Source: Narcine bancroftii
Lineage: Eukaryota
Reading direction: 5' to 3'
NCBI RefSeq assembly: GCF_036971445.1
Contig: NC_091476.1
Coordinates: forward strand, 101,246,001 to 101,310,000
Length of the DNA stretch: 64,000 nt
Part shown: in pieces, positions 3,440 to 64,000 of the stretch
Layout of the letters: every line of letters begins with the position of its first letter
Position numbering within the stretch: position 1 is the stretch's first letter
Notes under the pieces: generated by a model
The model's input: only the letters and a program-made list of their open reading frames with translations
What the model was told of the DNA's origin: nothing
The model's database searches: none
Program-made: the position numbers and the translations under genes

Positions 3440-4640
3440 CTACTCACCACCAAGAAACAACCTGGAAACAAAGTATCCCAAGGCTGCATTGATAACAGCC
3501 AGGGACATCAACCAAGCCAACCACAAGAGCCCTCCAGTGATCCCAATACACTTGTCCACTGCTCAACAATAAAAAATGCCTTCCATTCCATCCCTCATGC
3601 ATATTTCGGCAAGTCAGATCAATAAACTGTGCTGTTGCTAACCGCCTACAAGGGAAGACCCAGAAGAGCACATCATTCAACTACTGACTGAGGATACAGT
3701 CAACATCCTACAAAACTGCTTTGAATTGACAGTCTAGTCCCTATTCAAGGATTCAGCAAAATACCCTGATGACTATATCACCGTCATTTCTGACTTCATT
3801 AGCAAGTGTGTAAAGGACTGCATGACCTAGAAGACAATAAAGGCATTCCCCATTTGGAAATCATGGATGATCCATGATATTGTCTTGCTGATGAAGGCCA
3901 GGTATGAGTCATTCAATTCAGCACTCCCAGATCTTTGCACAAAATCCAAGTGTGGTCTTCAGGGAACCTAAGGGGCAATCTCACCCCAGATGAAAATCCC
4001 AAGAGAACATTTTTATTTTATTCAGACATATAGCATGGAAACAGGGCATTTCAGCCCATGGGTCTGTGCTGCCCAATTCACACCCAATTAACCTACACCC
4101 CTAGTATGTTTTAAATGGTGGGAGGAAACCAGAGCCCCCAGGGAAAACCCACACAGACATGGGGAGAATGTACAAACTCCTTGAATTTGAACCCCGGTCC
4201 CAATCACTGGCGTAGTGAAGGCATTGTGCTAACCGCCATGCCAACGGTGCCACCCATCATGGATACCCAGCAACTATGGCAAGACATGCATGCTATCACA
4301 TAATTTTATGTTTCTATAGCAAGAGTGCAACACCTCCCGATGAGCTATATGTGTTCTATACTCCCTTCAAACAGGGAGACCTCCACATCAACTACTACAT
4401 ACACTTCTGCAACGATGAAGCTGAAATTAGGTGGGCCTTATGAAGGGTGAGCCCACAGAAAACTGTCCCAGGGTGGGTTCTGTGAGTCTGCACAGATCAA
4501 CTGTGGCCACATTTACAGACATCTTTAATCAATCCCTGAAATAGGCTGTAGTACCCACTTGTTTCAAGAAGGCCATCATCATACCAGAACTGAAGAACAA
4601 TCGCAGGCTTAAATGATGACTGTCCAGTGGCTCTGACATT
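3440..4640 (+). mobile_element. Decayed Rex1/Babar-type LINE internal fragment, interrupted by a SINE at about 4010-4255
   Basis: TIKNAFHSIPHAYFGKSD (APE C-terminal SDH region) and PTCFKKAIIIP / PVALT RT-proximal motifs. Confidence 0.65.
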
Positions 4641-8220: not shown

Positions 8221-8411
8221 TATTATTATTGTTATTTGATGTGTCAAATGTTAAAAAAAAACATGCACCATATCAGTATCAAATATGAATTTTACAGATT
8301 TCATTTTTTCCCCATATTTATGTAACTCCTTGACTAGGCAGATTATAATGGAGATATCTTGCATCATGTCACTTGTGGCACATTATAACATGTATGGGTT
8401 GTGTTACTCAC

Positions 8412-8558
8412 CATTTACTGTGACATATACCCAGCTGCCATTGTGGAATGTGTCATATTGCTGGTCCAACATAAGCACTTTACATTCATACCATCCCTGG
8501 TCCTCTGAGCGGAGCTGGTCAATTCGCAAAGAAGCCTTGTCATATAGACTGGCTCGAC
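8412..8558 (-). CDS. IGSF9B: Internal coding exon of IGSF9B (protein turtle homolog B), second half of the first Ig domain
   Basis: Translates to (G)RASLYDKASLRIDQLRSEDQGWYECKVLMLDQQYDTFHNGSWVYVTVN, which I recognise as the IGSF9B/turtle Ig1 segment (DQGWYEC F-strand motif). Acceptor ttttggttttgcag| at 8559-8560, donor |gtgagt at 8411-8410. Length 147 bp, phase 1-1 as typical of Ig-domain exons. Paralog IGSF9 is less likely but not excluded. Confidence 0.9.
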
Positions 8559-8779
8559 CTGCAAAACCAAAATAAGGATCAGTACACATTAATAGAGGAA
8601 ATTCAGATATCCAGAAATTAATACATGGTTATAGTTACATTGAAGTAATTCCAATTGTCAGACTAAAACCACAAAACAAATCTCATTGACAATGCAGGGG
8701 AGAGAAGTGGTCTGGTAGAATACTTTAACTAATATCAATGCATGACATAACCATGCAATTAAAACCTGCTTCAGAATTC

Positions 8780-36771: not shown

Positions 36772-38484
36772 TCAGCTGCAGGCTCGTTTGTGGCTGACCA
36801 GTCCGATGCGGGACAGGCAGACACGATTGCAGCGGTTGCAAGGGAAAATTGGTTGGTTGGGGTTGGGTGTTGGGTTTTTCCTCCTTTGCCTTTTGTCAGT
36901 GAGGTGGGCTCTGCGGTCTTCTTCAAAGGAGGCTGCTGCCCGCCAAACTGTGAGGCGCCAAGATGCACGGTTTGAGGCTTTATCAGCCCACTGGCGGTGG
37001 TCAATGTGGCAGGCACCAAGAGATTTCTTTAGGCAGTCCTTGTACCTTTTCTTTGGTGCACCTCTGTCACGGTGGCCAGTGGAGAGCTCGCCATATAATA
37101 CGATCTTGGGAAGGCGATGGTCCTCCATTCTGGAGACGTGACCCATCCAGCGCAGCTGGATCTTCAGCAGCGTGGACTCGATGCTGTCGACCTCTGCCAT
37201 CTCGAGTACCTCGACGTTAGGGGTGTGAGCGCTCCAATGGATGTTGAGGATGGAGTGGAGACAACGCTGGTGGAAGCGTTCTAGGAGCCGTAGGTGGTGC
37301 CGGTAGAGGACCCATGATTCGGAGCCGAACAGGAGTGTGGGTATGACAACGGCTCTGTATACGCTTATCTTTGTGAGGTTTTTCAGTTGGTTGTTTTTCC
37401 AGACTCTTTTGTGTAGTCTTCCAAAGGCGCTATTTGCCTTGGCGAGTCTGTTGTCTATCTCATTGTCGATCCTTGCATCTGATGAAATGGTGCAGCCGAG
37501 ATAGGTAAACTGGTTGACCGTTTTGAGTTTTGTGTGCCCGATGGAGATGTGGGGGGGCTGGTAGTCATGGTGGGGAGCTGGCTGATGGAGGACCTCAGTT
37601 TTCTTCAGGCTGACTTCCAGGCCAAACATTTTGGCAGTTTCCGCAAAGCAGGACGTCAAGCGCTGAAGAGCTGGCTCTGAATGGGCAACTAAAGCGGCAT
37701 CATCTGCAAAGAGTAGTTCACGGACAAGTTTCTCTTGTGTCTTGGTGTGAGCTTGCAGGCGCCTCAGATTGAAGAGACTGCCATCCGTGCGGTACCGGAT
37801 GTAAACAGCGTCTTCATTGTTGGGGTCTTTCATGGCTTGGTTCAGCATCATGCTGAAGAAGATTGAAAAGAGGGTTGGTGCGAGAACACAGCCTTGCTTC
37901 ACGCCATTGTTAATGGAGAAGGGTTCAGAGAGCTCATTGCTGTATCTGACCCGACCTTGTTGGTTTTCGTGCAGTTGGATAATCATGTTGAGGAACTTTG
38001 GGGGACATCCGATGCGCTCTAGTATTTGCCAAAGCCCTTTCCTGCTCACGGTGTCGAAGGCTTTGGTGAGGTCAACAAAGGTGATGTAGAGTCCTTTGTT
38101 TTGTTCTCTACACTTTTCTTGGAGCTGTCTGAGGGCAAAGACCATGTCAGTGGTTCCTCTGTTAGCGCGAAAGCCGCACTGTGATTCTGGGAGAATATTC
38201 TCAGCGACACTAGGTATTATTCTATTTAGTAGAATCCTAGCGAAGATTTTGCCTGCAATGGAGAGCAACGTGATTCCCCTGTAGTTTGAGCAGTCTGATT
38301 TCTCGCCTTTGTTTTTGTACAGGGTGATGATGGTGGCATCACGAAGATCCTGAGGCAGTTTACCTTGGTCCCAACAAAGCTTGAAAAACTCATGCAGTTT
38401 GGCATGCAGAGTTTTGCCGCCAGCCTTCCAGACTTCTGGGGGGATTCCATCCATACCTGCTGCTTTGCCACTTTTCAGCTGTTC
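36772..38484 (-). CDS. RTE reverse transcriptase half (570 codons, no stops, C-terminal Cys/His motif)
   Basis: NYRGITLLS, QCGFR, FVDLTKAFD, GVKQGCVLAP, LFADD, YLG, CNRCNRVC...HKRAC. Confidence 0.93.
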   Translation of the reverse strand, partial: EQLKSGKAAGMDGIPPEVWKAGGKTLHAKLHEFFKLCWDQGKLPQDLRDATIITLYKNKGEKSDCSNYRGITLLSIAGKIFARILLNRIIPSVAENILPESQCGFRANRGTTDMVFALRQLQEKCREQNKGLYITFVDLTKAFDTVSRKGLWQILERIGCPPKFLNMIIQLHENQQGRVRYSNELSEPFSINNGVKQGCVLAPTLFSIFFSMMLNQAMKDPNNEDAVYIRYRTDGSLFNLRRLQAHTKTQEKLVRELLFADDAALVAHSEPALQRLTSCFAETAKMFGLEVSLKKTEVLHQPAPHHDYQPPHISIGHTKLKTVNQFTYLGCTISSDARIDNEIDNRLAKANSAFGRLHKRVWKNNQLKNLTKISVYRAVVIPTLLFGSESWVLYRHHLRLLERFHQRCLHSILNIHWSAHTPNVEVLEMAEVDSIESTLLKIQLRWMGHVSRMEDHRLPKIVLYGELSTGHRDRGAPKKRYKDCLKKSLGACHIDHRQWADKASNRASWRLTVWRAAASFEEDRRAHLTDKRQRRKNPTPNPNQPIFPCNRCNRVCLSRIGLVSHKRACS

Positions 38485-38680
38485 CGATACGGGCAGGAGC
38501 AAGGGGGAGACGGCGGCCCCGGCCTCGGTCGAGTGAGGCAGACGGAGGCCCCGGTCCGGGCAGTATGGACCGACCTAGGAGGGGAGGCAGGCCCCTCCAG
38601 CCCGGGTAAGAAACCTGCATAGGAGAAGGCCACTCCGATATAAAACCTACGACCCAAGGACCTCGCTGCCACGTCCCAGC

Positions 38681-40453
38681 TTGCTTGGCCACGGCACACG
38701 AACCATGGGTGTAAAGGGTGGGGCCAGTACTGCGCGCACTGCACTCCACCTAAAAGCTCCTTTGCGCAGGCCCGAGGACAGGTCCACGTCCTCCCCCTCC
38801 ACGTCCTCCCCCTCCACGTCCTCCCCCTCCACGTCCTCCCCCTCCACGTCCTCCCCCTCCACGTCCTCCCCCTCCACGTCCTCCCCCTCCACGTCCTCCC
38901 CCTCCACGTCCTCCCCCTCAAAAGATGCTCACAAACTCAAGCTAGCATGCTGGAACATCAGAACCATGCTAGATAAGACTGACAGCCATCGACCTGAACG
39001 TCGGTCTGCCCTCATTGCACATGAACTCCTCAGACTTGACATCGACATAGCCGCTCTCAGTGAAGTCCGCCTGGCAGATGTAGGCAGCTTCCAAGAACGC
39101 GGCGCGGGCTACACACTCTACTGGTCTGGCAAGCCTTCGGATGAACGACGCCTATCTGGTGTAGGCTTCATGGTCAAGAGCTTCATTGCCTCCAAACTCG
39201 AAAACCTTCCGACAGGCCTCTCGGACCGAATCATGTCCATGCGACTCCCACTTCAAAACAAGCGTCACATCACCCTCATCAGTGTCTATGCTCCAACCCT
39301 CCAGGCGGAACCAGTAGAAAAGAACAAGTTCTACACCGACCTGCGCAACCTCATCCAACGTACCCCTACAGCCGACAAGGTTGTCATCCTGGGCGACTTC
39401 AACGCTCGTGTCGGCAAAGACTCAGAAACCTGGCCAGGAATCCTGGGCAAGCATGGCGTCGGCAAGTGCAACGACAATGGGCGCCTCCTGTTGGAGCTCT
39501 GCGCAGAACAGCGGCTTGTCATTACAAACACCCTTTTTCAGCAGAGGGACAGCCTTAAGACCACCTGGATGCATCCCCGATCCAAACACTGGCACCTCCT
39601 GGACTACATCCTGGTGCGAGAAAGTGACAAACAAGATGTGCTCCACACCAGGGTCATGCCTAGCGCGGAATGCCACACTGACCACCGGCTGGTTCGCTGC
39701 AAGCTCAACCTTCACTTCAAGCCAAAGCCCAGGAACAATAAAGCCCCCAGAAAGAGGTTCAATGTTGGAAAACTGCAGTCAGACGAAGCGAGAGGAAACT
39801 TCCAGGCAAACCTCAAAGCAAAGCTCGACGTTGCAACCCGCCTCACGGACCCGTCCCCTGAAACCCTCTGGGATCAGTTGAAGACTACCATACTGCAATC
39901 CACTGAAGAGGTACTGGGCTTCTCCTCCAGGAAAAACAAGGACTGGTTTGACGAAAACAGCCAGGAAATCCAGGAGCTGCTGGCAAAGAAGCGAGCTGCC
40001 CACCAGGCTCACCTTACAAAGCCGTCCTGTCCAGAGAAGAAACAAGCCTTCCGTCGCGCATGCAGCCATCTTCAGCGCAAACTCCGGGAGATCCAAAATG
40101 AGTGGTGGACTAACCTCGCCAAACGAACACAGCTCAGCGCGGACATTGGCGACTTCAGGGGTTTCTACGAGGCTCTAAAGGCTGTGTACGGCCCCTCACC
40201 CCAAGTCCAAAGCCCGCTGCGCAGCTCAGACGGCAAAGTCCTCCTCAGCGACAAGATCTCCATCCTCAACCGATGGTCAGAACACTTCCAATCTCTTTTC
40301 AGTACCAACCGCTCAGTCCAAGATTCCGCCCTGCTCCAGCTCCCTCAACAGCCCCTAAGGCTAGAGCTGGATGAGGTTCCCACCCTGGATGAGACATATA
40401 AGGCAATCCATTATTCCTACTGCAACATTAAAGAGTTAATTAGTTATAAATAA
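38681..40453 (+). CDS. RTE APE endonuclease half; last 14 codons come from flanking DNA
   Basis: WNIRT, LSEVR, VYAPT, LGDFNARVG, LDYI, TDHRLV motifs. RTE homology ends at YKAI (40408). First in-frame ATG is at 38705-38707 region (MGVKGG); the annotated start is a TTG. Confidence 0.9.
   Translation: MLGHGTRTMGVKGGASTARTALHLKAPLRRPEDRSTSSPSTSSPSTSSPSTSSPSTSSPSTSSPSTSSPSTSSPSTSSPSKDAHKLKLACWNIRTMLDKTDSHRPERRSALIAHELLRLDIDIAALSEVRLADVGSFQERGAGYTLYWSGKPSDERRLSGVGFMVKSFIASKLENLPTGLSDRIMSMRLPLQNKRHITLISVYAPTLQAEPVEKNKFYTDLRNLIQRTPTADKVVILGDFNARVGKDSETWPGILGKHGVGKCNDNGRLLLELCAEQRLVITNTLFQQRDSLKTTWMHPRSKHWHLLDYILVRESDKQDVLHTRVMPSAECHTDHRLVRCKLNLHFKPKPRNNKAPRKRFNVGKLQSDEARGNFQANLKAKLDVATRLTDPSPETLWDQLKTTILQSTEEVLGFSSRKNKDWFDENSQEIQELLAKKRAAHQAHLTKPSCPEKKQAFRRACSHLQRKLREIQNEWWTNLAKRTQLSADIGDFRGFYEALKAVYGPSPQVQSPLRSSDGKVLLSDKISILNRWSEHFQSLFSTNRSVQDSALLQLPQQPLRLELDEVPTLDETYKAIHYSYCNIKELISYK
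38783..38917 (+). repeat. Perfect 15-bp minisatellite x9 (TCCACGTCCTCCCCC) encoding (STSSP)9
   Basis: Read directly from the sequence; in frame just before the APE domain. Confidence 0.97.
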
Positions 40454-50433: not shown

Positions 50434-51367
50434 TTCTCTTCTTCTTCTTTGGCTTGGCTTCGCGGACGAAGATTTATGAAGGGGTAATTGTCCACGTCAG
50501 CTGCAGGCTCGTTTGTGGCTGACAAGTCCGATTCGGGACAGGCAGACACGGTTGCAGCGGTTACAGGGGAAAATTGGTGGGTTGGGGATGGATGTTGGGA
50601 TTTTCCTCCTTTGTCTTTTGTCAGTGAGGTGGGCTCTGTGGTCTTCTTCCAAGGAGGTTGCTGCCCGCCGAACTGTGAGGTGCCAAGATGCACGGTTGGA
50701 GGCGATATCAGCCCACTGGCAGTGGTCAATGGGGCAGGCACCAAGAGATTTCTTTAGGCAGTCCTTGTACCTCTTCTTTGGTGCACCTCTGTCTCGGTGG
50801 CCAGTGGAGAGCTCGCCATATAACACGATCTTGGGAAGGCGATGGTCCTCCATTCTGGAGACGTGACCTACCCAGCGCAGTTGGATCTTCAGCAGCATGG
50901 ATTCGATGCTGTCAGCCTCTGCCATCTCGAGTACTTCAATGTTGGTGATGAAGTCGCTCCAATGAATGTTGAGGATGGAGCGGAGACAACGTTGGTGGAA
51001 GCGTTCTAGGAGCCGTAGGTGATGCCGGTAAAGGACCCATGATTCGGAGCCGAACAGGAGTGTGGGTATGACAACGGCTCTGTATACGCTAACCTTTGTG
51101 AGGTTTTTCAGTTGGTTGTTTTTCCAGACTCTTTTGTGTAGTCTTCCAAAGGTGCTATTTGCCTTGGAGAGTCTGTTGTCTATCTCGTTGTCGATCCTTG
51201 CATCCAATGAAATGGTGCAGCCGAGATAGGTAAACTGGTTGACCGTTTTGAGTTTTGTGTGCCCGATGGAGATGTGGTAGTCATGGTGGGGAGCTGGTGA
51301 TGGAGGACCTCAGTTTTCTTCAGACTGACTTCCAGGCCAAACATTTTGGCAGTTTCTGCAAAACAGG
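50434..51367 (-). mobile_element. 5'-truncated RTE, somewhat older copy or subfamily
   Basis: Homologous to 36720-37650 with more substitutions and small deletions; (GAA)n tail; no clear TSD. Confidence 0.92.
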
Positions 51368-53850: not shown

Positions 53851-56800
53851 CAGTGTTTTAAGTGGATCAGTTACTTTCTGTGGAGCAAACAGAAATGAGA
53901 AGAATGCAGGTTTTGGATGGTGTGGGGACAGTGAGAACCCTTAGTTTAAAGTCAAAAAGTCATTGGTATTCAACAAGCCTTTGGTTCAACTTTTTGATAA
54001 GGACACCTGCATATCGCACAGGGGCCCATTTAAAAATTCATCAGAATCTCCAGTAACACTGCATTCCCTTAACGCCTGAGTATCAACATCATTTATGAAC
54101 TCAGATCCCAGAGTGAAGTTTGGATTTGAACTTGGCTGATTCAGAAACATGAGAGCAACCAAATGGGGAAAGCTGATTATGATGTTCTAAAGAAAGCCAG
54201 TTATTCTGTCCACCTGCTTTATACAAGGATGGATTGCTATTAGTTTATAATACAGTTTACATGGGCATTCTTTGATGATATCCCCTATGGGTAAGTGCCA
54301 ACATCTGCCACTATACTCATTTGATTCTGGCATGTTTCCTACAGCTGGCTACCAGCTTTGATATTTAAATGCATGCTAAGAATCAATGCAATTTGGAATA
54401 CTCTCCCAGTTTGTACCCAACTGTTAACATATACAAGGGTTAGAAAGTACAACCAATTACCATTACAGTCAAGACAAATGCCCAATAGATCAGTTATGCA
54501 AGCCTTTCTGGAAACCTAAGACATCACCAAGAAACAACAAGCATTAGCAGATTTCTTAAACTTCCCACCCATGAGGCAACTGGCCCTGACACCCACATTA
54601 TAATTCACCATAGCTGTTCTATAATTAGTTGTGCACCCAGCTATGCATTTTCTTCACTGTTGGGAGAAATAGAGCTTTTGGCAGGCAAACCTAAGATATT
54701 TATTCTTCACTTAGGAAAAGCTAAAAGCACTGTGCAAGGCTCATGAATTAGAGAGATGACACTGTCTTCTCAATGTTTTCTAAACACCATCTCCTCATCT
54801 CAATTTTCAATGGTATCCTCCACTCTCCACAGACAGACCAAAGCAAGTCTGAGCCATTCACTATGATCATCTCTCCTGTGGTCAGCCTACAGTTTGCAGT
54901 GGGCTCACAGCAAGATAGGCGATCAGGGTAGATTACAGTTCGTAATAGGAGAACATCAGGTCCCTCTTCCCTCACCTACTTGGCAACCTTTTCTTTGTGT
55001 ATTATGGTTGGCACCGGAACAGTCCTCTGAATGCAGTGTCACTTCCTTCTACACACCACAGCAATGACACAGCATTTGGGAGCTCCTCTAATTTCCCCCC
55101 CCCCCCCCCCCCAGATGCTCAGGTTCCTCTTCACATCCCAGAAGTGTGGACATTAAGGGATTAATTAGGACTGTGATTTCTCCCTAGTGCATAGATGAGT
55201 TGACGTCATCTGGAAGGGCATTGTTGGTAATGTGGGGAAGATGAAATAGGTTCAGGTGGGGGTTAGTGTAAGTGGGAGCTTGATGGTCAATGTGAACTCA
55301 GTTGGCCAGAGGGTCTGTTTCCATGCTCTATGTCTCTTGAATCCTCACTGTAGCTCCACTCTCCTCACCACTCTGGTCTTATTGCTGAGGCAGAGCCGTC
55401 TGCAGGTGCTTTAAGCTGCAAGAGGCTGAATCTACAGCCCCATCCACAGTGTATAAGGTTGAAGGCTCACTGATGATGAAAGATATTTCAAAACAAAATT
55501 TAAATAATCAGTAAAATAATTAAAAAGCCATATTCAACAAATACATTTTTTTAAAATACCAATATTAATGAAAGCAATGCAAAAGAGAATAAATTATTTT
55601 CCTTCCCTTATCATTTTAATGCAGGTTGGTGGCTCCATCTTAATGTTGTACTAGTCACAACTAGCATAAAGCTGAGGGGCTAGATGTGAAATGTATTCAG
55701 CTCCTCTGCCCAGCAAGTTCTGGAAGTTCTGTGATGCACTGGTGAATCCAGAGGAAATGTACTGATCTCCAGTATGTTACTCCAGTGGTGCAGCGTGCAG
55801 GAGTGATTGCGATTCCCGTTCACCACAACTGCAGCAATGTACTAAACAGCCCAAATTTGGATGGGGTGTGGAGGAGGGGAATGGGGGGGGTAGATGTTTT
55901 TTTTTAATATTTGCCAGTTTCTGGCAATATCTATCAAAATTGGCAGGAGATGTTTTAAAGTATTTTGCCTTAATTAGGCAGGAAGATTTGAACACCACAG
56001 ATAGATAAATAAGAGGGGAAGGGACAGGTCCTGATAGAATTGTGAACAATCCCGGCTCCAAAAATGACAAATAGTTTTGAACTGCAAGGCTATTTAATGG
56101 GTTGAAAAGTGATCCATTTAAAAGGTTCTCAAGGAGAGTTTAAGTACAGAATATTATTCAACATTTATTTTATTGTTTTATTATTTTAAAGTGTTTTCTC
56201 AATTCAGAGAATTACCAGCTATAATCTTTTTTGCAAGTTTTGACAGTTTTGATTTTCCTTTAAGTGTTTAGCAGACATAATTTTGAAGACAATGTGGGAA
56301 AATATACAATTATCTATGTCAAAGACTGATTTAATAAACCTTTTTCTACCTTTGATTTGTGATCCAACTGCTTCTCCTCCATAAAAGCCTGCTTTAGGAA
56401 AGCCCTATCGAGGAATATGTCTGCTGTCAGACCATCTGCCACAGGAATTACATTTTGAGATGGAACAAAGTAAAGAAATTGATTCTTTCCCTTTAAAGTT
56501 ACTTCCTCAACACACCAAATGTCTTCTGACAGAAATATCTCTACCTTTAGAGAAAGAATTTCTTCATTTGGCTGCATTTTATCAAACTTCACTGAGCACG
56601 TCACACTGTTTATACCAAGCGACTGGCATAAGTTCAACTTGAACAGAAATTGAGGGGGATTGGCATATTGTGGGCAGATGGTGCTCTGTATTGGTATGTG
56701 GTGTGGGCACAGGTTATAACGCAGCATGCATGTATCTTTGCATGCAGAGACATTAGAGGTGCCAAGAGAGAACTGGAAAAGGGCAAAACAACCAAAGCAA

Positions 56801-58149
56801 ATCATAACAACAAAATATTCTGGTCCAGACACCTAGCAGGAGTTTATTCAGGAACAAGGGTTATTGTAACATAGCAAAACATAGGATAACAACTCAAGAA
56901 ATATTCTAAATGGCTAGTTTCTGAAACTTTACCCTAGCAAACCACTTAAATCCTACACCTGAATTTTTTTGCTGTTGATATTCTTGATTGGAAAAGAATG
57001 AATGTCATAAAATTTCTAAAAAGCATCGTAATTACAGGGAACAGGAAAATTCTTGCAAGTATGTATAATTTTCCACATATGCAAAATCAATAAAATCACC
57101 ATCAAAGGGAAAAGTAAAAGACAGGGAACATGACCTTGCCCAGGTAGATCTTTCTTAAACAATTTCATATAGTTCAGTTTTGTGAAAACCTGACAACCCA
57201 TATTGACAGGAGAAGGCCCTATCACTTTATATCTGTTAACATTAGTGGAATACTCCATTAATAATGCAGGTAAGATAGAAAAGAAGAATCACAACATGCT
57301 ATAAGAAAGCAAATTGAGGGAATCGCAAGAGGTGCAAGGTCACAGTAGGGTTAACATTACATCGAAGTAGAGGTGTGCTCGTGCATGACCAAGAACATCT
57401 ATGCATGGCCAAAAATTGACTTACCAGGTTTGGCTCTTCCAAAGCACGCTCAGGAGCTTTCTCAATGTGATGAGGAATTCTGCCTCCATCACCCTTTTGA
57501 GCAGAGCAATCCAAATATTTTTTTCAACTTCTGTCAATTTTAACAAATTTGCTTTCCAGTTGCTCTGAGAGATCAGTAAGTTTACCTGATCCAGATCTCA
57601 CATAATGTTATGCATCTCAATTAAATCTCCTGTCGGGCTCCTTGTTTTCCAAAGAAACAGTAAAGCCTGAGCATTCTCTCCTTACAATAAGTTTCCAGCA
57701 ACATCCTTGAAACCACCCCTGAGCCCCCTCTGGTGCTTGTTAAATTTTCAGGAGATACTGACGAGATGTAGAGTGCGAACTCACAGACTACAGGAGTCCT
57801 CACCAGTACTATTCAGAGGTAAAATAAAGTTCAACCCAGGAAAATATCCCAAGTAACAATTGCAGATAAATGGTAAACCACCTCTGACAGATTTACACAT
57901 GAAATTGGTTGCAAGTATTTGAGGAATTATTTTCTCATGCATTGGGTAATAATGAATAGAGACTGGCAGAATGTTCTCTTACCATTTTTGTGAGTGCTTT
58001 TTCCAATATTAATGAACATTTCTAAACTATTCTGTGCAGTGCATGTGATTTTTGCTTGCCAATTATTTTCATAAATGTATAAACGATATCTCAACAGAAT
58101 TTCTAATAGGCTGGATTTTTCTAGTCAGCATCAAAGAGATGACATTTGC

Positions 58150-58970
58150 TTTGAGCCGAGGGTAGGGTGAAGGTGACAACAGGTTATAGAGTGATAAGCA
58201 GGGACATAAAAGTTAACTAACCAGTGGTGAAATCTGATAAGGAGGAAGGTGAACATGAAGGGGGGAAGGGCAGATGGAACCTCATGGAGAAGGGGAGAGG
58301 GAGTCTGATGGGTGAAATATGTGGGCAGAGGTGGATGGAACTAGGAGGACGACAAAAATGGATGATTGGGGGGGTGGGGGAAAGTGTGCAGGTGGAAAGG
58401 ATGTTTGTGGTAAAGGGAACACAACTGAAAGGACCAGAGGTGGATGCATACTTTCTACAGATCATAGTTGGAGCCATGGGTGCTCACTACAGTGAGGCCA
58501 AATGCAAACTAGAAGAACAACACTTTAATTTCCATGTGAGTAGTCCACTATGGACACTGAGTTTGCCAATGTCAGGTAACCTTCACTTTCTATGTTCCCT
58601 CTCTCCCTCTGATCCACCTCTGGTCCTCCCAGTCTTGTTTCCTGTCCCATATCTCCCCTCCATCCTGCAGCATCCATATTTGTTCCTCTCACCCTATTCT
58701 TTAACCTTCTACCCACATGATTCACGTACAAGATCCTCTCTCCCATCTGGTCCCATCCGCCCCTCATGTCTCCCTTGTGGTTCCCATTATCACCTCTCTA
58801 ATGTATCAGATCTCAGCACTTGTAGCATTTGTGCCTCTGCTTATCAAACTAGAACTCTATATTCACCTTTATCACACCATTTCCCCATCTGGCTTGATCT
58901 GCCCCTTTTTATCCTTGTCTGTTCATCCTATCACCTACCTGCCTCAGTTTCTCAACCTCCCTCCTCCCCA
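58150..58970. mobile_element. Penelope-like 3' fragments in both orientations
   Basis: EAKCKLEEQHFNF motif at about 58490-58535 followed by pyrimidine-rich sequence; purine-rich mirror segment upstream. Confidence 0.5.
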
Positions 58971-59041
58971 TCCAGAGAGACAGCACTACAGGGGCAACTG
59001 ACCAGCAAGTTCAGCCATCTCACTGATGAGTAGAAGACCCT

Positions 59042-59214
59042 AGAGTGTAGAGTGCTCTGAGGAGATGGAGTACCTTTGGTGCTGATAGCTGCACCTCATT
59101 AAGGTGGGGATGATAGGCATCACTGGACCTCACTCATCTCCTAAATCTCTCACTTGTTGGCTCCTCGTGCCACACCCTGGAAACTGTTTCAGTTAGCGGG
59201 AGAAAACAAGTGAG
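59042..59214 (+). ncRNA. HDV-like self-cleaving ribozyme fold at the 5' end of the RTE derivative
   Basis: P1 AGAGTGT(59042-48)/ACACCCT(59172-78); P2 CTCACTTGTT(59149-58)/AACAAGTGAG(59205-14); P3 GGC/GCC around L3 TCCTCGT; P1.1 GG(59179-80); P4 AACTG-TTT-CAGTT; J4/2 AGCGGGAGAA. Confidence 0.75.
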
Positions 59215-60137
59215 GGGGTGGTGTCATTACTACACCACTAGGTGATCATCCCAACGGTGGAACAGGTGGAAGAGGAGACATCTCCCAACGGCTGCAAAGG
59301 CGGATGAGGATACCCAATAATGGATGGGGAGGCTTGTGAGCATGCCGCAAGAACTGCCGTGGACCCACAACACTCAGGGCTTGTCTAGCTAGTGTGTGAA
59401 GCCTGGATTCAGCGGACTGTGCAGAAAAAACCATCACTGGTTCAACGGGCAGAAAGGTGATTCTCAGCGATGCATTGTGGAGCGCTAAGAGGGCACAGTG
59501 AGACACATACAGAACACTACTGGCCATCCACTGCATCGTGACCTGTCTCCAGCCATCTTGACTATGTCTTGCCACTGGGTCCAGATAGGCTGGGGCGAGA
59601 GAGTGAGGCTGACGACCTGTTCAACTCTCCCTCACTTTAAATCCAAATCAAATGCAAGTCAATGAAACCCAATACACAACACCTAAAGTCCTGCGGTGAT
59701 GGGGAGTGGCGAAACAATAGGTACAAATACACTGGAAGCTGTAGATACAAACCTGCACAAAGACGGCTCAGGGAATAGGGTCACTCTCTACTGGACAGAA
59801 GCAGCAGTTGCGTTTGGCTGCCCCCTGGGTGTCTGAGCAGCCCTCTTTAGGATCGCTCTGCTCACCTCCATGGAAGAATGGGCTGCAAAAGGTGCTTCAA
59901 ACATAGACTGCTTCAGCTGAAGTCAGGCACATCATCGAGGTGCAACTAAAGTGTGCTATGTGCAAGACCCGAGCAGCATCCACTGCCACGACAGCACCCA
60001 CCCACTTGTGTCCCAAATGTGGGCAAGCCTTCAGGCCCCAGATTGGGCTCACCAGTCACCTCCGGACCACAGCCATTTGACTTTAAAGCCATGGTCATCT
60101 TCAACTATGAAGGATGAACAAGAAGAAGAACAACAAC
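59043..60137 (+). mobile_element. Internally deleted (bipartite) RTE derivative: about 870 bp of 5' region joined to about 225 bp of 3' end
   Basis: 3' part encodes HLCPKCGQAFRPQIGLTSHLRT, then CTTCAACTATGAAG hairpin and (AAG/AAC)n tail. Putative TSD AGAAGACCCTA (59032-59042) / AGAAGACACTA (60138-60148). No EN or RT. Confidence 0.75.
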
Positions 60138-61617
60138 AGAAGACACTAATGGCTATTTCAGCTGAAGTTTGCATCAAGCCAGTGTATTTTGGTTGAATGC
60201 TTATGAAAAGACTGCAGCAGTACAATCTGAGGAAGAAACATCTGGATTTCTGGCAGTAACATCTGGATTTCTGCATTTAACTGAACATTTGGGATGTGGG
60301 AGGTTGCAATCAGCAGTTCACTAATAACTGCCTCATTCTAACAACTGCAAATTGTTGATCAAAATATAATTGCTTGGTTCCTGTTAAAATTTTGTTCCTG
60401 TCGACAATTTGCAATGAATATCAGCATTAACACCTAGACATCGATGTTATTGAGAAGCATGAATGTGATCGTCATGTACATTATGTACTAAATAATTTCA
60501 GAAAGGTTAACCTCCAAGTAGTTTTCCCAAATCGCAAACACTTTCAAATAAGTTTTAATCACCAGTATAATGCATTTGTCAATGTAATTTAGAGAGGAAA
60601 GATTTATTGGGATATAAATTGAATTCAGGCAAATGGGACTAGCTTAATGGGCATGAAGTTGGGCTGAATGGCCTGTTTCTGTGTAATCTTCTATGACTCC
60701 ATGACAAAATAAGTCATTTTTTTCCCATTTATTTTCTCAAACCCAATTCCAGCATTTTCACTCAAGATGACTCAATGCCATGACTTCTCGAACTCTCCTG
60801 TTCTGGTTGGTATAAATGAGAGAGAAATGGAAAACAGAAGATGCAGAGATTTAAAGGAAGGACACTACAAATTCAAAAGAATATGACCCAGGAACTAATA
60901 AAAAGACTGGGCTACTGCCCTTGTAAAAAGAAAGTTGAGGGCTAACCTACCAAAGGCCTTTAAAATTGTGACATGTCGCTGAGGCAGAGGGAATATTTCT
61001 AGATAGCTAGAAAACATCAATTTAAGAGAGTCAACAGGTTCTTTCTTCAATGTTTTGGCTTTATCTGAGATTTCCATCTCCTATTTTGGGGGAAGGCTTA
61101 ACAGGTTTAAGATATATAATTACCTTGGAAAACTGGCAATTATGTGTTAAGTATCAATCCTTCCATTTAATCTGAATAAAGTATGTTGAACAACGCAAAA
61201 TGGATATTGAATCACTGGTAACAAATGCTCATGAAACAGCACGCTCCACTTCATGATCACTCATGTGTTTTGTATAAATGTCAGAAGCCTTGAATCATGG
61301 GCATGGTAAGACAACAAACACTTCGAATGCACTATCATGCTTTATGACACTGTAAACCACTGCATTTTGTTCTTATTTAGTCCTGAAGAGCTCAGGATTG
61401 CCTGCACAGTTTAAATAAAAAGTGTCACTTAATTAATTTCACGTGAAGTAATTAATTCTGGGATATTGGTCTCCTTTATAAATGCAGGTGAGGGGAATGG
61501 ATTGCAGTCTTGGAAAAGACTGTCTATCTTGCATCCAGCCCTGAGTGGGTGAAGGAAGTGGTTTGGGTTGGTAGGTGGGCCTTACATGATCAGATGAGTT
61601 TCTCCCACACTTTAGTG

Positions 61618-61717
61618 TCTTTGGCTTGGCTTCGCGGACGAAGATTTATGGAGGGGGTAAAAGTCCACGTCAGCTGCAGGCTCGTTTGTGGCTGACAAGT
61701 CCGATGCGGGATAGGCA
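61618..61717 (-). mobile_element. 100-bp RTE 3' end with 17-bp TSD
   Basis: TCTCCCACACTTTAGTG at 61601-61617 and 61718-61734. Confidence 0.93.
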
Positions 61718-61959
61718 TCTCCCACACTTTAGTGGATAACAAATGTAAAGGGCAGCACTCACCACTAGGGGAGATCTTGCTCAACCTTTTAAACAGCAGA
61801 TGAGAGACAGGTGTTCTTCCTGTTTATTCCTCATTAGATAAAGGAAGGGCAAAAAAAAGATGGAACAGATGTGCAGGATTCGTATTCAATAAAAAAAAGA
61901 TGCTTCACTTGTATGCTAATCTGCCTTAGGGAAATGCTAATTTATTTATGTCTCATTCT

Positions 61960-62937
61960 CTTCTCTTTGGCTTGGCTTCGCGGACGAAGATTTATGGAGG
62001 GGGTAAAAAGTCCACGTCAGCTGCAGGCTCGTTTGTGGCTGACCAGTCCGATGCGGGACAGGCAGACACGATTGCAGCGGTTGCAAGGGAAAATTGGTTG
62101 GTTGGGGTTGGGTGTTGGGTTTTTCCTCCTTTGCCTTTTGTCAGTGAGGTGGGCTCTGTGGTCTTCTTCAAAGGAGGCTGCTGCCCGCCAAACTGTGAGG
62201 CGCCAAGATGCACGGTTTGAGGCGTTATCAGCCCACTGGCGGTGGTCAATGTGGCAGGCACCAAGAGATTTCTTTAGGCAGTCCTTGTACCTTTTCTTTG
62301 GTGCACCTCTGTCACGGTGGCCAGTGGCGAGCTCGCCATATAATACGATCTTGGGAAGGCGATGGTCCTCCATTCTGGAGACGTGACCCATCCAGCGCAG
62401 CTGGATCTTCAGCAGCGTGGACTCGATGCTGTCGACCTCTGCCATCTCGAGTACCTCGACGTTAGGGGTGTGAGCGCTCCAATGGATGTTGAGGATGGAG
62501 CGGAGACAACGCTGGTGGAAGCGTTCTAGGAGCCGTAGGTGGTGCCGGTAGAGGACCCATGATTCGGAGCCGAACAGGAGTGTGGGTATGACAACGGCTC
62601 TGTATACGCTTATCTTTGTGAGGTTTTTCAGTTGGTTGTTTTTCCAGACTCTTTTGTGTAGTCTTCCAAAGGCGCTATTTGCCTTGGCGAGTCTGTTGTC
62701 TATCTCATTGTCGATCCTTGCATCTGATGAAATGGTGCAGCCGAGATAGGTAAACTTGTTGACCGTTTTGAGTTTTGTGTGCCCGATGGAGATGTGGGGG
62801 GGCTGGTAGTCATGGTGGGGAGCTGGCTGATGGAGGACCTCAGTTTTCTTCAGGCTGACTTCCAGGCCAAACATTTTGGCAGTTTCCGCAAAGCAGGACG
62901 TCAAGCGCTGAAGAGCTGGCTCTGAATGGGCAACTAA
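61960..62937 (-). mobile_element. Young 5'-truncated RTE with open reading frame and 11-bp TSD
   Basis: Nearly identical to 36720-37691. TSD TGTCTCATTCT at 61949-61959 and 62948-62958. Confidence 0.95.
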
Positions 62938-63778
62938 TGAGACATGGTGTCTCATTCTACTGCTTCATTAATGCACCATGCCTCAGAAATGAAAATTCAC
63001 CAAGTTACATGTCATATGAGCAGAGTTGTGATGCATTTCCCCTTCTTTCTCTCTCTTCCTTTCCACTTTTCCAACAAGTGAAGTTCTTTTTAGAGATACC
63101 ACCCAACAAGCTGCACCGCTCAAATACACTAATTAACCTACAAACACTGGATATCTTTGGAGGGTGGGAGGAAATCGGAGCACACAGACAAAACGTGCAA
63201 ACCTCTTACAGACTGCACTGGAGTCACACCTGGGTTGCAGGCACTGTAACAGTGTTGCGCTACCTACTACACTAATCGTGTCACCCTGTTGCATTGAATG
63301 TTCTCTGGCTTTCATTCCTTTTGACTGTGAAATAAGGACGTCCTGAGTTACAAAGCAATCATTGGGGCTGTTAAAGTGCAGTAAGGTGACTCCAAAGTCC
63401 CATTCCATGGGACAGAATCCCAACTCCAGGAAGTACTGAAATAGCAGGATTTAGTTAGATCCTTGGCCCCCATTTCCAGTGAACACAACCTAGCACAAGA
63501 TGTCTGAAGTGTGATTGTTTTACAGTGATAAAGTGGAACACATGGTGCTTTAAAAAAATGCAGGAGAGTAGTGAAAATTATTTTACAGATGGGACTTATT
63601 TTGAGAAGAACCCTTTGCCGTGATAAAAATATCTAAACAATTCTGTGAAGATGAAATGTTACAATGAAACCAATCTAGCGAGTCAGTAATGACTCCCAGG
63701 CCCATTGGAGTAAAACATGACTACAATTTTCAAAGGACAGGATTTAAATAATTTGAATAAAACAATCTAAATCATTAT

Positions 63779-64000
63779 ACATTTAAACCCCTGGTATCCA
63801 GTACTTATGGGGATTGGTAGATGCTGGATAAGTGAACTTACTGGTAGCTTGAGAGTGTGTGTGTTGCATTGAATGGTGAATTGACCGTTAGGGGCAGCAA
63901 TTTTAAACTTTCAAATTTTTTACCTATTTATTTTCCACAATATTTTTGCTGGTTACTTGAGGTTGCCAGTTGTTTGAATTCCGGATAATGGGGATTTTAC
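63779..64000 (+). mobile_element. Tc1/mariner-pogo-type MITE running to the window edge
   Basis: AAACCCCTGGTATCC ... GGATAATGGGGATTTTAC inverted ends; same family as 4967-5157. Confidence 0.65.

Follow-up and report, generated by a model that had tools for sequence, protein, structure and literature searches.

An internally deleted LINE copy in an intron of IGSF9B

The window, by which is meant the whole 64 000-nucleotide stretch of DNA that was analysed, comes from a genome of 3.3 Gb. Coding exons of IGSF9B were found on the minus strand at window positions 8407–8565 and ∼38 kb past the right end of the window; the exon at 8407–8565 encodes an Ig V-set domain and its top identities (92–94%) were with cartilaginous fishes. 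As IGSF9B exons on the minus strand lie on both sides, the segment 59042–60137, which reads on the plus strand, is intronic and antisense to the gene, the orientation that the original prediction had given.

This segment is a worn, internally deleted copy of an RTE-type LINE. Full-length relatives are ∼4.2 kb and contain endonuclease and RT domains; Pfam searches of long copies returned PF03372 with an E-value of 3.7e-5 (24.0 bits, just below the cut-off of 24.5) and PF00078 with an E-value of 4e-23. The APE-type endonuclease and RT, the length of 4.2 kb, the trinucleotide tail and the TSDs agree with an RTE-type architecture, and the clade label is one that we presume from this architecture and from sequence motifs. 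When the first 300 nt of the element were used as a query at least 231 candidates were obtained, of which 40 were scored, and the 39 besides the window copy were 88–92% identical. The copies described below are a sample of ∼70 of the at least 231 candidates.

The window copy corresponds to reference positions 1–876 and 3971–4199, joined at a 2-base microhomology (CA, 59914–59915), and ∼3.1 kb has been deleted, endonuclease and RT included. The product is a bipartite form, with the 5′ UTR fused to the 3′ end and the ORF removed. It is bordered by TSDs of 10–11 bp at 59032–59042 and 60138–60148, which match with one mismatch; the last base of the left TSD, A59042, is common with element position 1 and can be read as the final TSD base or as the first base of the element. 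The predicted ribozyme fold (59042–59217) is followed by the remaining 5′ UTR (59218–59657), which closes in a block at ∼59625–59660 that sister families and metagenome relatives have conserved, by the left arm of a predicted stem (59658–59670) and by the lead-in to the ORF start (59671–59915), up to the deletion junction. Beyond this junction are the 3′ end of the ORF with a Cys-His motif and the beginning of the 3′ UTR (59914–60081), the right arm of the stem (60082–60095) and a 3′ stem-loop with a short trinucleotide tail (60096–60137). All these features are on the plus strand.

An HDV-like fold at the head of the family

Copies were aligned in two rounds, 30 first and then 69, and a family majority was taken from the alignments. 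The majority satisfied a strict HDV-like descriptor of our own design, with a nested double pseudoknot in the order P1, P2, P3, P1.1, P4: a P1 of 7 bp from position 1, a J1/2 of 97 nt, a P2 of 13 bp, P3 as GGC/GCC, L3 as TCCTCGT, P1.1, a P4 of 5 bp and J4/2 as GCGAA. In window coordinates the 5′ strand of P1 is at 59042–59048, with predicted cleavage directly 5′ of 59042, and J1/2, which is predicted to form a long interrupted hairpin (−36.8 kcal/mol for the majority), is at 59049–59145. The strands of P2 are at 59146–59158 and 59205–59217, the latter closing the fold; the P3 strands are at 59159–59161 and 59169–59171 with L3 between them (59162–59168), providing the equivalents of U20, C21, C22 and G25. 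The 3′ strand of P1 (59172–59178, the last base being U37) is followed directly by the P1.1 GG at 59179–59180. P4 is formed by 59184–59188 with 59195–59199, and the five bases at 59200–59204 constitute J4/2.

Much of the original prediction was recovered at the place indicated, namely a P1 with six of seven pairs, P3, L3 and the P1.1 GG; the J1/2 of about 100 nt proved to be 97 nt, and the P2 of 10 bp, described as extendable, reaches 13 pairs if G-U is counted. The P4 first proposed was a different pairing, which arose from three C-to-T changes in the window copy, and J4/2, thought to be longer than canonical, has the canonical five bases. C59197, one of the two fates offered for the catalytic cytosine, sits in the 3′ strand of P4; the other, that it had been lost, was borne out, position 59201 being A.

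None of 20 000 dinucleotide shuffles passed the strict descriptor. When the P3/L3/GG core was held fixed 32 of 20 000 shuffles passed anywhere, and one of 20 000 passed with P1 at the first three bases. The core pattern was too unspecific for a scan of viral contigs, which was used as a control only; among 120 viral loci picked for having that core, three passed the descriptor, all with a short P2 (6–8 bp). Across the 69 copies the conserved core was maintained at U20 in 68, C21 in 64, C22 in 66, G25 in 60 and the two P1.1 G positions in 66 and 65. The position equivalent to C75 (59201) was C in 49 copies, T in 15, A in three and a gap in two, so the J4/2 cytosine that had been anticipated in a consensus was present; T in 15 of 69 is as expected from the decay of a CpG site. 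The same position was C in contigs from three public runs (3, 4 and 3 contigs), accounting for the full depth in two runs and for most of the depth in the third. The intact core was kept in seven of the 69 copies (L007, L020, L028, L081, L084, L091 and L119).

Rfam, the covariance-model check that had been suggested, gave no ribozyme match in 54000–64000 nor in five other loci; this result presumably carries little weight, as the models cannot score pseudoknots and J1/2 is long. A lower substitution rate at paired core positions (4.7% against 6.7%) was considered as evidence and rejected, because the pattern searches had selected intact cores.

State of the window copy

Over the first 175 positions the window copy departs from the majority 11 times. 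A G-to-A change at 59044 breaks one P1 pair, the mismatch that had been noted originally, and C-to-T changes are found at 59185, 59187 and 59193, with two P4 pairs decayed to U-G. The equivalents of U20, C21, C22 and G25 and the P1.1 GG are all present. The strict descriptor, passed by the family majority, gave no matches to the window copy on either strand of the window, and the copy passed only when the cytosine requirement was removed and one P1 mismatch was allowed.

A full pairwise mutant screen of HDV reportedly yielded no highly active mutant at C75 (PMC9901934). Together with the A at 59201 this suggests that the window copy is likely to be dead, and on its sequence the ribozyme in this copy is likely to be inactive through loss of the catalytic cytosine. 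That the copy might be an active or host-adopted ribozyme has in its favour the intact P2, P3, L3 and P1.1 and a region that folds better than all of 200 shuffles (z = −3.2), but the C75A change, which the mutant screen speaks against, the P1 mismatch and the antisense orientation make this reading hardly credible.

The 5′ boundary and the cut-site pair

Among 34 5′-complete copies, position +1 was A in 21, T in seven, G in three and C in three, an excess of A over the flank background of 27% (p = 2e-5). Position −1 was T in 16 copies (p = 0.05) and positions −2 to −6 looked random. The copies were alike from position +1 onward with nothing common upstream, and several TSDs stopped exactly before +1. 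The composition at +1, the random upstream positions and the TSD ends place the start of the family at the predicted cut site, where A1 pairs with U37. An A at position 1, originally listed as a defect, is the family state (21/34) and not decay.

Two further observations were made at the 5′ junctions. Three copies (L023, L037 and L081) had a short duplication of the first bases of the element, consistent with re-priming at a four-base internal repeat, and three (L005, L010 and L131) were inserted at a nearly identical site in the same short host repeat.

The cut-site pair 1:37 is A1-U37 in this family, while G1 is found in the sister families. G1-U37 is preferred in HDV and is not obligatory (PMC1874588, PMC8233481), and in CPEB3 G1A lowers cleavage from 92% to 3% (PMC8233481); consequently the family ribozyme with A1-U37 may have been slow. 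Changes at G1 are, however, tolerated by HDV variants that fold fast (PMC8233481). Large HDV-like ribozymes can gain speed from a structured J1/2 (PMC4908430), and by analogy the structured J1/2 of this family may offset the A1 penalty.

The A1-U37 pair is also the starting point of a different reading, according to which the fold is a weak or silent relic, retained for a protective or protein-binding role of the 5′ structure, with the 5′ end set by an internal promoter or an RT stop. The strong reduction of CPEB3 activity by G1A agrees with this, several copies are truncated at ∼190–220, right behind the fold, the template benefit in R2 is posited to rest on the fold and not necessarily on cleavage (PMC11331408), and the L1Tc ribozyme region doubles as a promoter (PMC3185411). 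However, the majority retains C75, A78, U20, G25 and P1.1, the copies start at the predicted scissile position and not behind the structure, and there is the tolerance of G1 changes in fast-folding HDV variants; we therefore consider a relic improbable. The copies truncated behind the fold (L061, L070, L116, L127 and L131, with 5′ ends at reference 190–220) begin just behind the ribozyme and a hairpin at 59217–59238, which was perhaps an RT stop.

Sister families

With the UTR of a metagenome relative as the query a sister family was reached, and with the head of that family as the query two families, S1 (11 copies) and S2 (14 copies), were obtained. The majority lines of both keep P1, P3, P1.1 and U20-C21-C22, P3 and U20-C21-C22 being identical in the two, and P1 begins with G. 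J4/2 is GCTAA in both, with the cytosine in all eight and all 12 parsed copies respectively.

Both strands of P4 are changed between families: CCGCT/AGCGG here, CGGCTT/AAGCCG in S1 and CCGTCT/AGACGG in S2. In P2 one pair changes from T-A to C-G, with a bulged C close by, and pair 1:37 is G-U or G-C in the sister families. Covariation between families was therefore seen in P2, P4 and pair 1:37, the majority lines being compared by eye because MAFFT misaligned the families. Within the family there were no double changes (12 hand-picked rows, six of them chosen as intact), as expected if copies decay from few masters, so the covariation that had been sought among other copies was found only at the level of families. 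In S2 conservation reaches 5–8 nt upstream of G1, in a near-duplicate of the P1 strand, and the match between boundary and cut site is therefore less clean there.

Some features of these relatives fall outside the shared fold. Both S1 and S2 (L391–L420, for example L392 and L404) have a hairpin inserted between L3 and the 3′ strand of P3, which is absent from this family. The descriptor gave no match in metagenome relatives (15 loci, 52–73% protein identity, most of them without the 5′ end). One metagenome RTE relative (L264:242–420, L266:736–915) opens with the same four bases as the element; by eye its head is double-pseudoknot-like, with a 10-bp stem on the first bases and a P2- and P4-like arrangement, without a canonical L3, and neither the descriptor nor Rfam matched it. 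The block of ∼35 nt at 59625–59660, just before the left arm of the predicted stem, is more conserved than its flanks in S1 and in metagenome relatives and may, judged from this pattern, be a candidate protein-binding site; no match to it was found in viral or prokaryotic contigs.

The observed basis for a ribozyme is that copies are alike from +1, that the majority fits all descriptor elements and that the sister families keep the fold with paired changes. We consider it probable, with good confidence, that 59042–59217 represents the 5′ head of an RTE-type LINE in a decayed state, and that the predicted HDV-like ribozyme of the family likely cut the element RNA from read-through host transcripts just before 59042; the window copy, antisense and without the catalytic cytosine, is likely inert. 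By the precedent of R2, L1Tc and RTE elements, self-cleavage would have been Mg2+-dependent with C75 as the general acid, and it would leave an exonuclease-resistant 5′-OH end, inherited by each new copy. The proposal of an HDV-like ribozyme with its cut site at the 5′ boundary is thus supported for the family, through the conservation from +1, the J4/2 cytosine of the majority and the paired changes in the sisters, and is not supported for the window copy as an active RNA, given the A at 59201 and the G-to-A change at 59044.

Shortened copies and their junctions

Deletion junctions were collected from 69 copies in which the 5′ UTR is represented up to its end, a sample in which 5′- and 3′-anchored searches are mixed. 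In ten copies the sequence goes on for 125 nt or more beyond the ATG located there, and 59 break earlier. Fifty-five of the 69 break at −2 to +27 of the ATG of the left arm, within 30 nt of one spot, and the commonest break is ATG+16 (14/59). The 3′ part could be aligned in 42 short copies, 35 of which resume 34–53 nt before the tail, while others resume 77–306 nt before it; 17 of the 59 have no alignable 3′ part. In the 3′-anchored sample alone nine of 30 copies were bipartite.

Thirty-five different junctions were present among the 42 copies, seven of them seen twice and none more often; one junction common to many copies, as in a propagating family, was not found among the 42. Some short copies may nevertheless have spread by themselves, in view of the seven that recur. 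Two subfamilies, A and B, differ only at the left indel and in linked changes at the right end, and both include long and short copies. Splicing was ruled out as the source of the deletions, as the junctions shift by single bases and have no fixed GT-AG ends. Two copies (L139:2873–3131 and L140:3019–3257) are 5′-inverted, the inverted piece being their own 5′ end (reference 2–266 and 5–258 respectively), so both second primings started within 8 nt of each other.

It could be argued that the short copies are a SINE-like family derived from one or a few short masters, with the stem described below selected there as a local hairpin and the variety of junctions due to later trimming of the loop. 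Seven junctions are each common to two loci, the younger B subfamily has an improved stem, and both bipartite RTE families and R2 SIDEs do propagate (PMC5786205, PMC3414825). Yet the A and B variants occur in long as well as short copies, no substitution separates short from long copies (55 against 10), and one short master cannot supply a set in which 17 of 59 lack an alignable 3′ part while others resume 77–306 nt before the tail. Short masters are on these grounds an unlikely, though still appreciable, alternative to the repeated new formation of short copies.

A predicted stem between the two ends

The left arm at 59658–59670, after which most short copies break, and the right arm at 60082–60095 are predicted to form a stem of 13 bp joining the 5′ UTR end to the 3′ UTR; in the window copy the left arm is damaged by a small deletion. 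No longer near-perfect complementarity was found when the 5′ 760 nt were compared with the last 54 nt. The length of the stem was reached anywhere in the 5′ 760 nt in 11 of 150 shuffles and within the break region in nine of 2000. The energy, −11.9 kcal/mol, is modest, and other stretches pair equally well.

Far stronger evidence came from the comparison across families. In S1 six bases of the left arm and seven of the right differ, and all 13 pairs are kept, five by double change; pairing was kept in two of 200 000 random-change trials. The S1 arms were taken from 18 left and nine right sequences; in short copies, the source of seven of the nine right arms, the stem is a local one. The same joining site is found in eight short S1 copies. 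Pairing across the junctions is generally weak (p = 0.024 for 35 standard junctions, which are not independent, and p = 0.067 for 16 others), and the junction of the window copy ranks at the 22nd percentile.

A ribosome footprint on the ATG reaches to about +16, which is close to the commonest break. A ribosome or protein on the ATG might therefore protect a 5′ fragment ending near +16, the RT then jumping end to end with no role for pairing, and many copies do jump from the tail itself, ahead of the right arm. S1, however, has no ATG at the homologous site and breaks in the same place, which argues against a ribosome-based cause; +16 also has microhomology to the 3′ side, and the compensatory changes are left unexplained. 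This origin of the breaks is very improbable.

The complementarity of the 5′ UTR end to the 3′ UTR over 13 bp, the compensatory changes in a sister family and the pile-up of deletion junctions at the inner base of the stem are the observations from which an end-to-end stem is proposed, and such a stem likely explains the repeated origin of shortened copies. The stem would have held both ends of the 4.2-kb RNA together, the RT would often have jumped across, and ribozyme-headed short copies would have been made anew many times; the window copy would be a less usual product, in which a larger piece was retained. We lean, by a little, towards a more general statement: that the RTE RNAs of this group are looped by a conserved 13-bp stem, that skipping by the RT is frequent enough to make new ribozyme-headed mini-elements of as many as a third of insertions, and that this supplies the lacking explanation for the continued production of bipartite elements and SINE bodies by RTEs, in contrast to most LINEs.

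Comparison with known systems

RTE elements have been reported with HDV-like ribozymes that cut at the 5′ junction (PMC3774820, PMC5786205), and there are reports for R2 and L1Tc, and a statement for RTE, that self-cleavage releases the element RNA from host transcripts (PMC3774820, PMC3185411, PMC6765202). The ribozymes of the RTE clade (Ruminski et al., 2011, as described in PMC5786205, PMC6765202 and PMC3774820) share the fold, the position at the 5′ junction and, by architecture, the clade; the present family differs from what is described there in its cartilaginous-fish-like genome, in A1-U37 instead of G1-U37 and in a J1/2 of 97 nt. Lamprey is among the hosts of HDV-like ribozymes (PMC13635239).

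The R2 ribozyme and R2 SIDEs are alike in the ribozyme head and the long J1/2, R2 likewise has 5′ junctions that vary where the ribozyme cuts at the end of the element, and R2 SIDEs are likewise internally deleted copies that keep the ribozyme and the 3′ end (PMC3774820, PMC3414825). Template jumps are documented for R2 (PMC3414825). As far as these accounts go, R2 SIDEs are old and rare, each lineage having a single junction, whereas many clustered junctions are found here, with short copies making up nine of 30 in the 3′-anchored sample. In L1Tc and NARTc a dispersed LINE and its short derivative also share an HDV-like head that cuts at +1, but L1TcRz is a compact 77-nt ribozyme with promoter function in another clade and host (PMC3185411).

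Bipartite RTEs are common and unexplained (PMC5786205, PMC7245038). The ORF-less derivatives Bov-A and WALLSI3 also have a 5′ UTR joined to an RTE 3′ end (PMC5786205); they are said to arise in few clades 'for unknown reasons', and the accessible text of that paper names no 5′-3′ stem. Here, as distinct from Bov-A and WALLSI3 as described, a stem with compensatory changes marks the junctions. No title or abstract opening in our literature search, whose coverage excluded most subscription papers, described a shark RTE ribozyme or a 5′-3′ stem. HDV-like heads on RTEs have thus already been published, and a stem pairing the element ends was not found in the literature searched.

The ribozyme is that of a vertebrate RTE, its cut-site pair is A-U and its two sister forms have an extra hairpin beside L3; together they are a natural series on the tolerance of the fold. 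The stem matters more, as it makes the origin of bipartite RTEs testable. The stem also concerns gene insertion with RTEs: the payload is placed between the 5′ and 3′ UTRs (PMC13708176) and would be lost if the RT jumped across a stem of this kind.

Other RTE copies in the window

A very young RTE family is represented at 37498–40294 (L277–L296), with 40 copies 100% identical over 291 nt; it has a GC-rich tandem-repeat 5′ end, and its copy in the window is 5′-inverted. The HDV descriptor did not match this family (window 38484) in 20 loci, and Pfam did not match an RTE piece at 62020–62961. On the minus strand 5′-truncated copies of another RTE family were found at 61960–62925, 36955–37488 and 50683–51213, one of them with an open frame of ∼300 codons.
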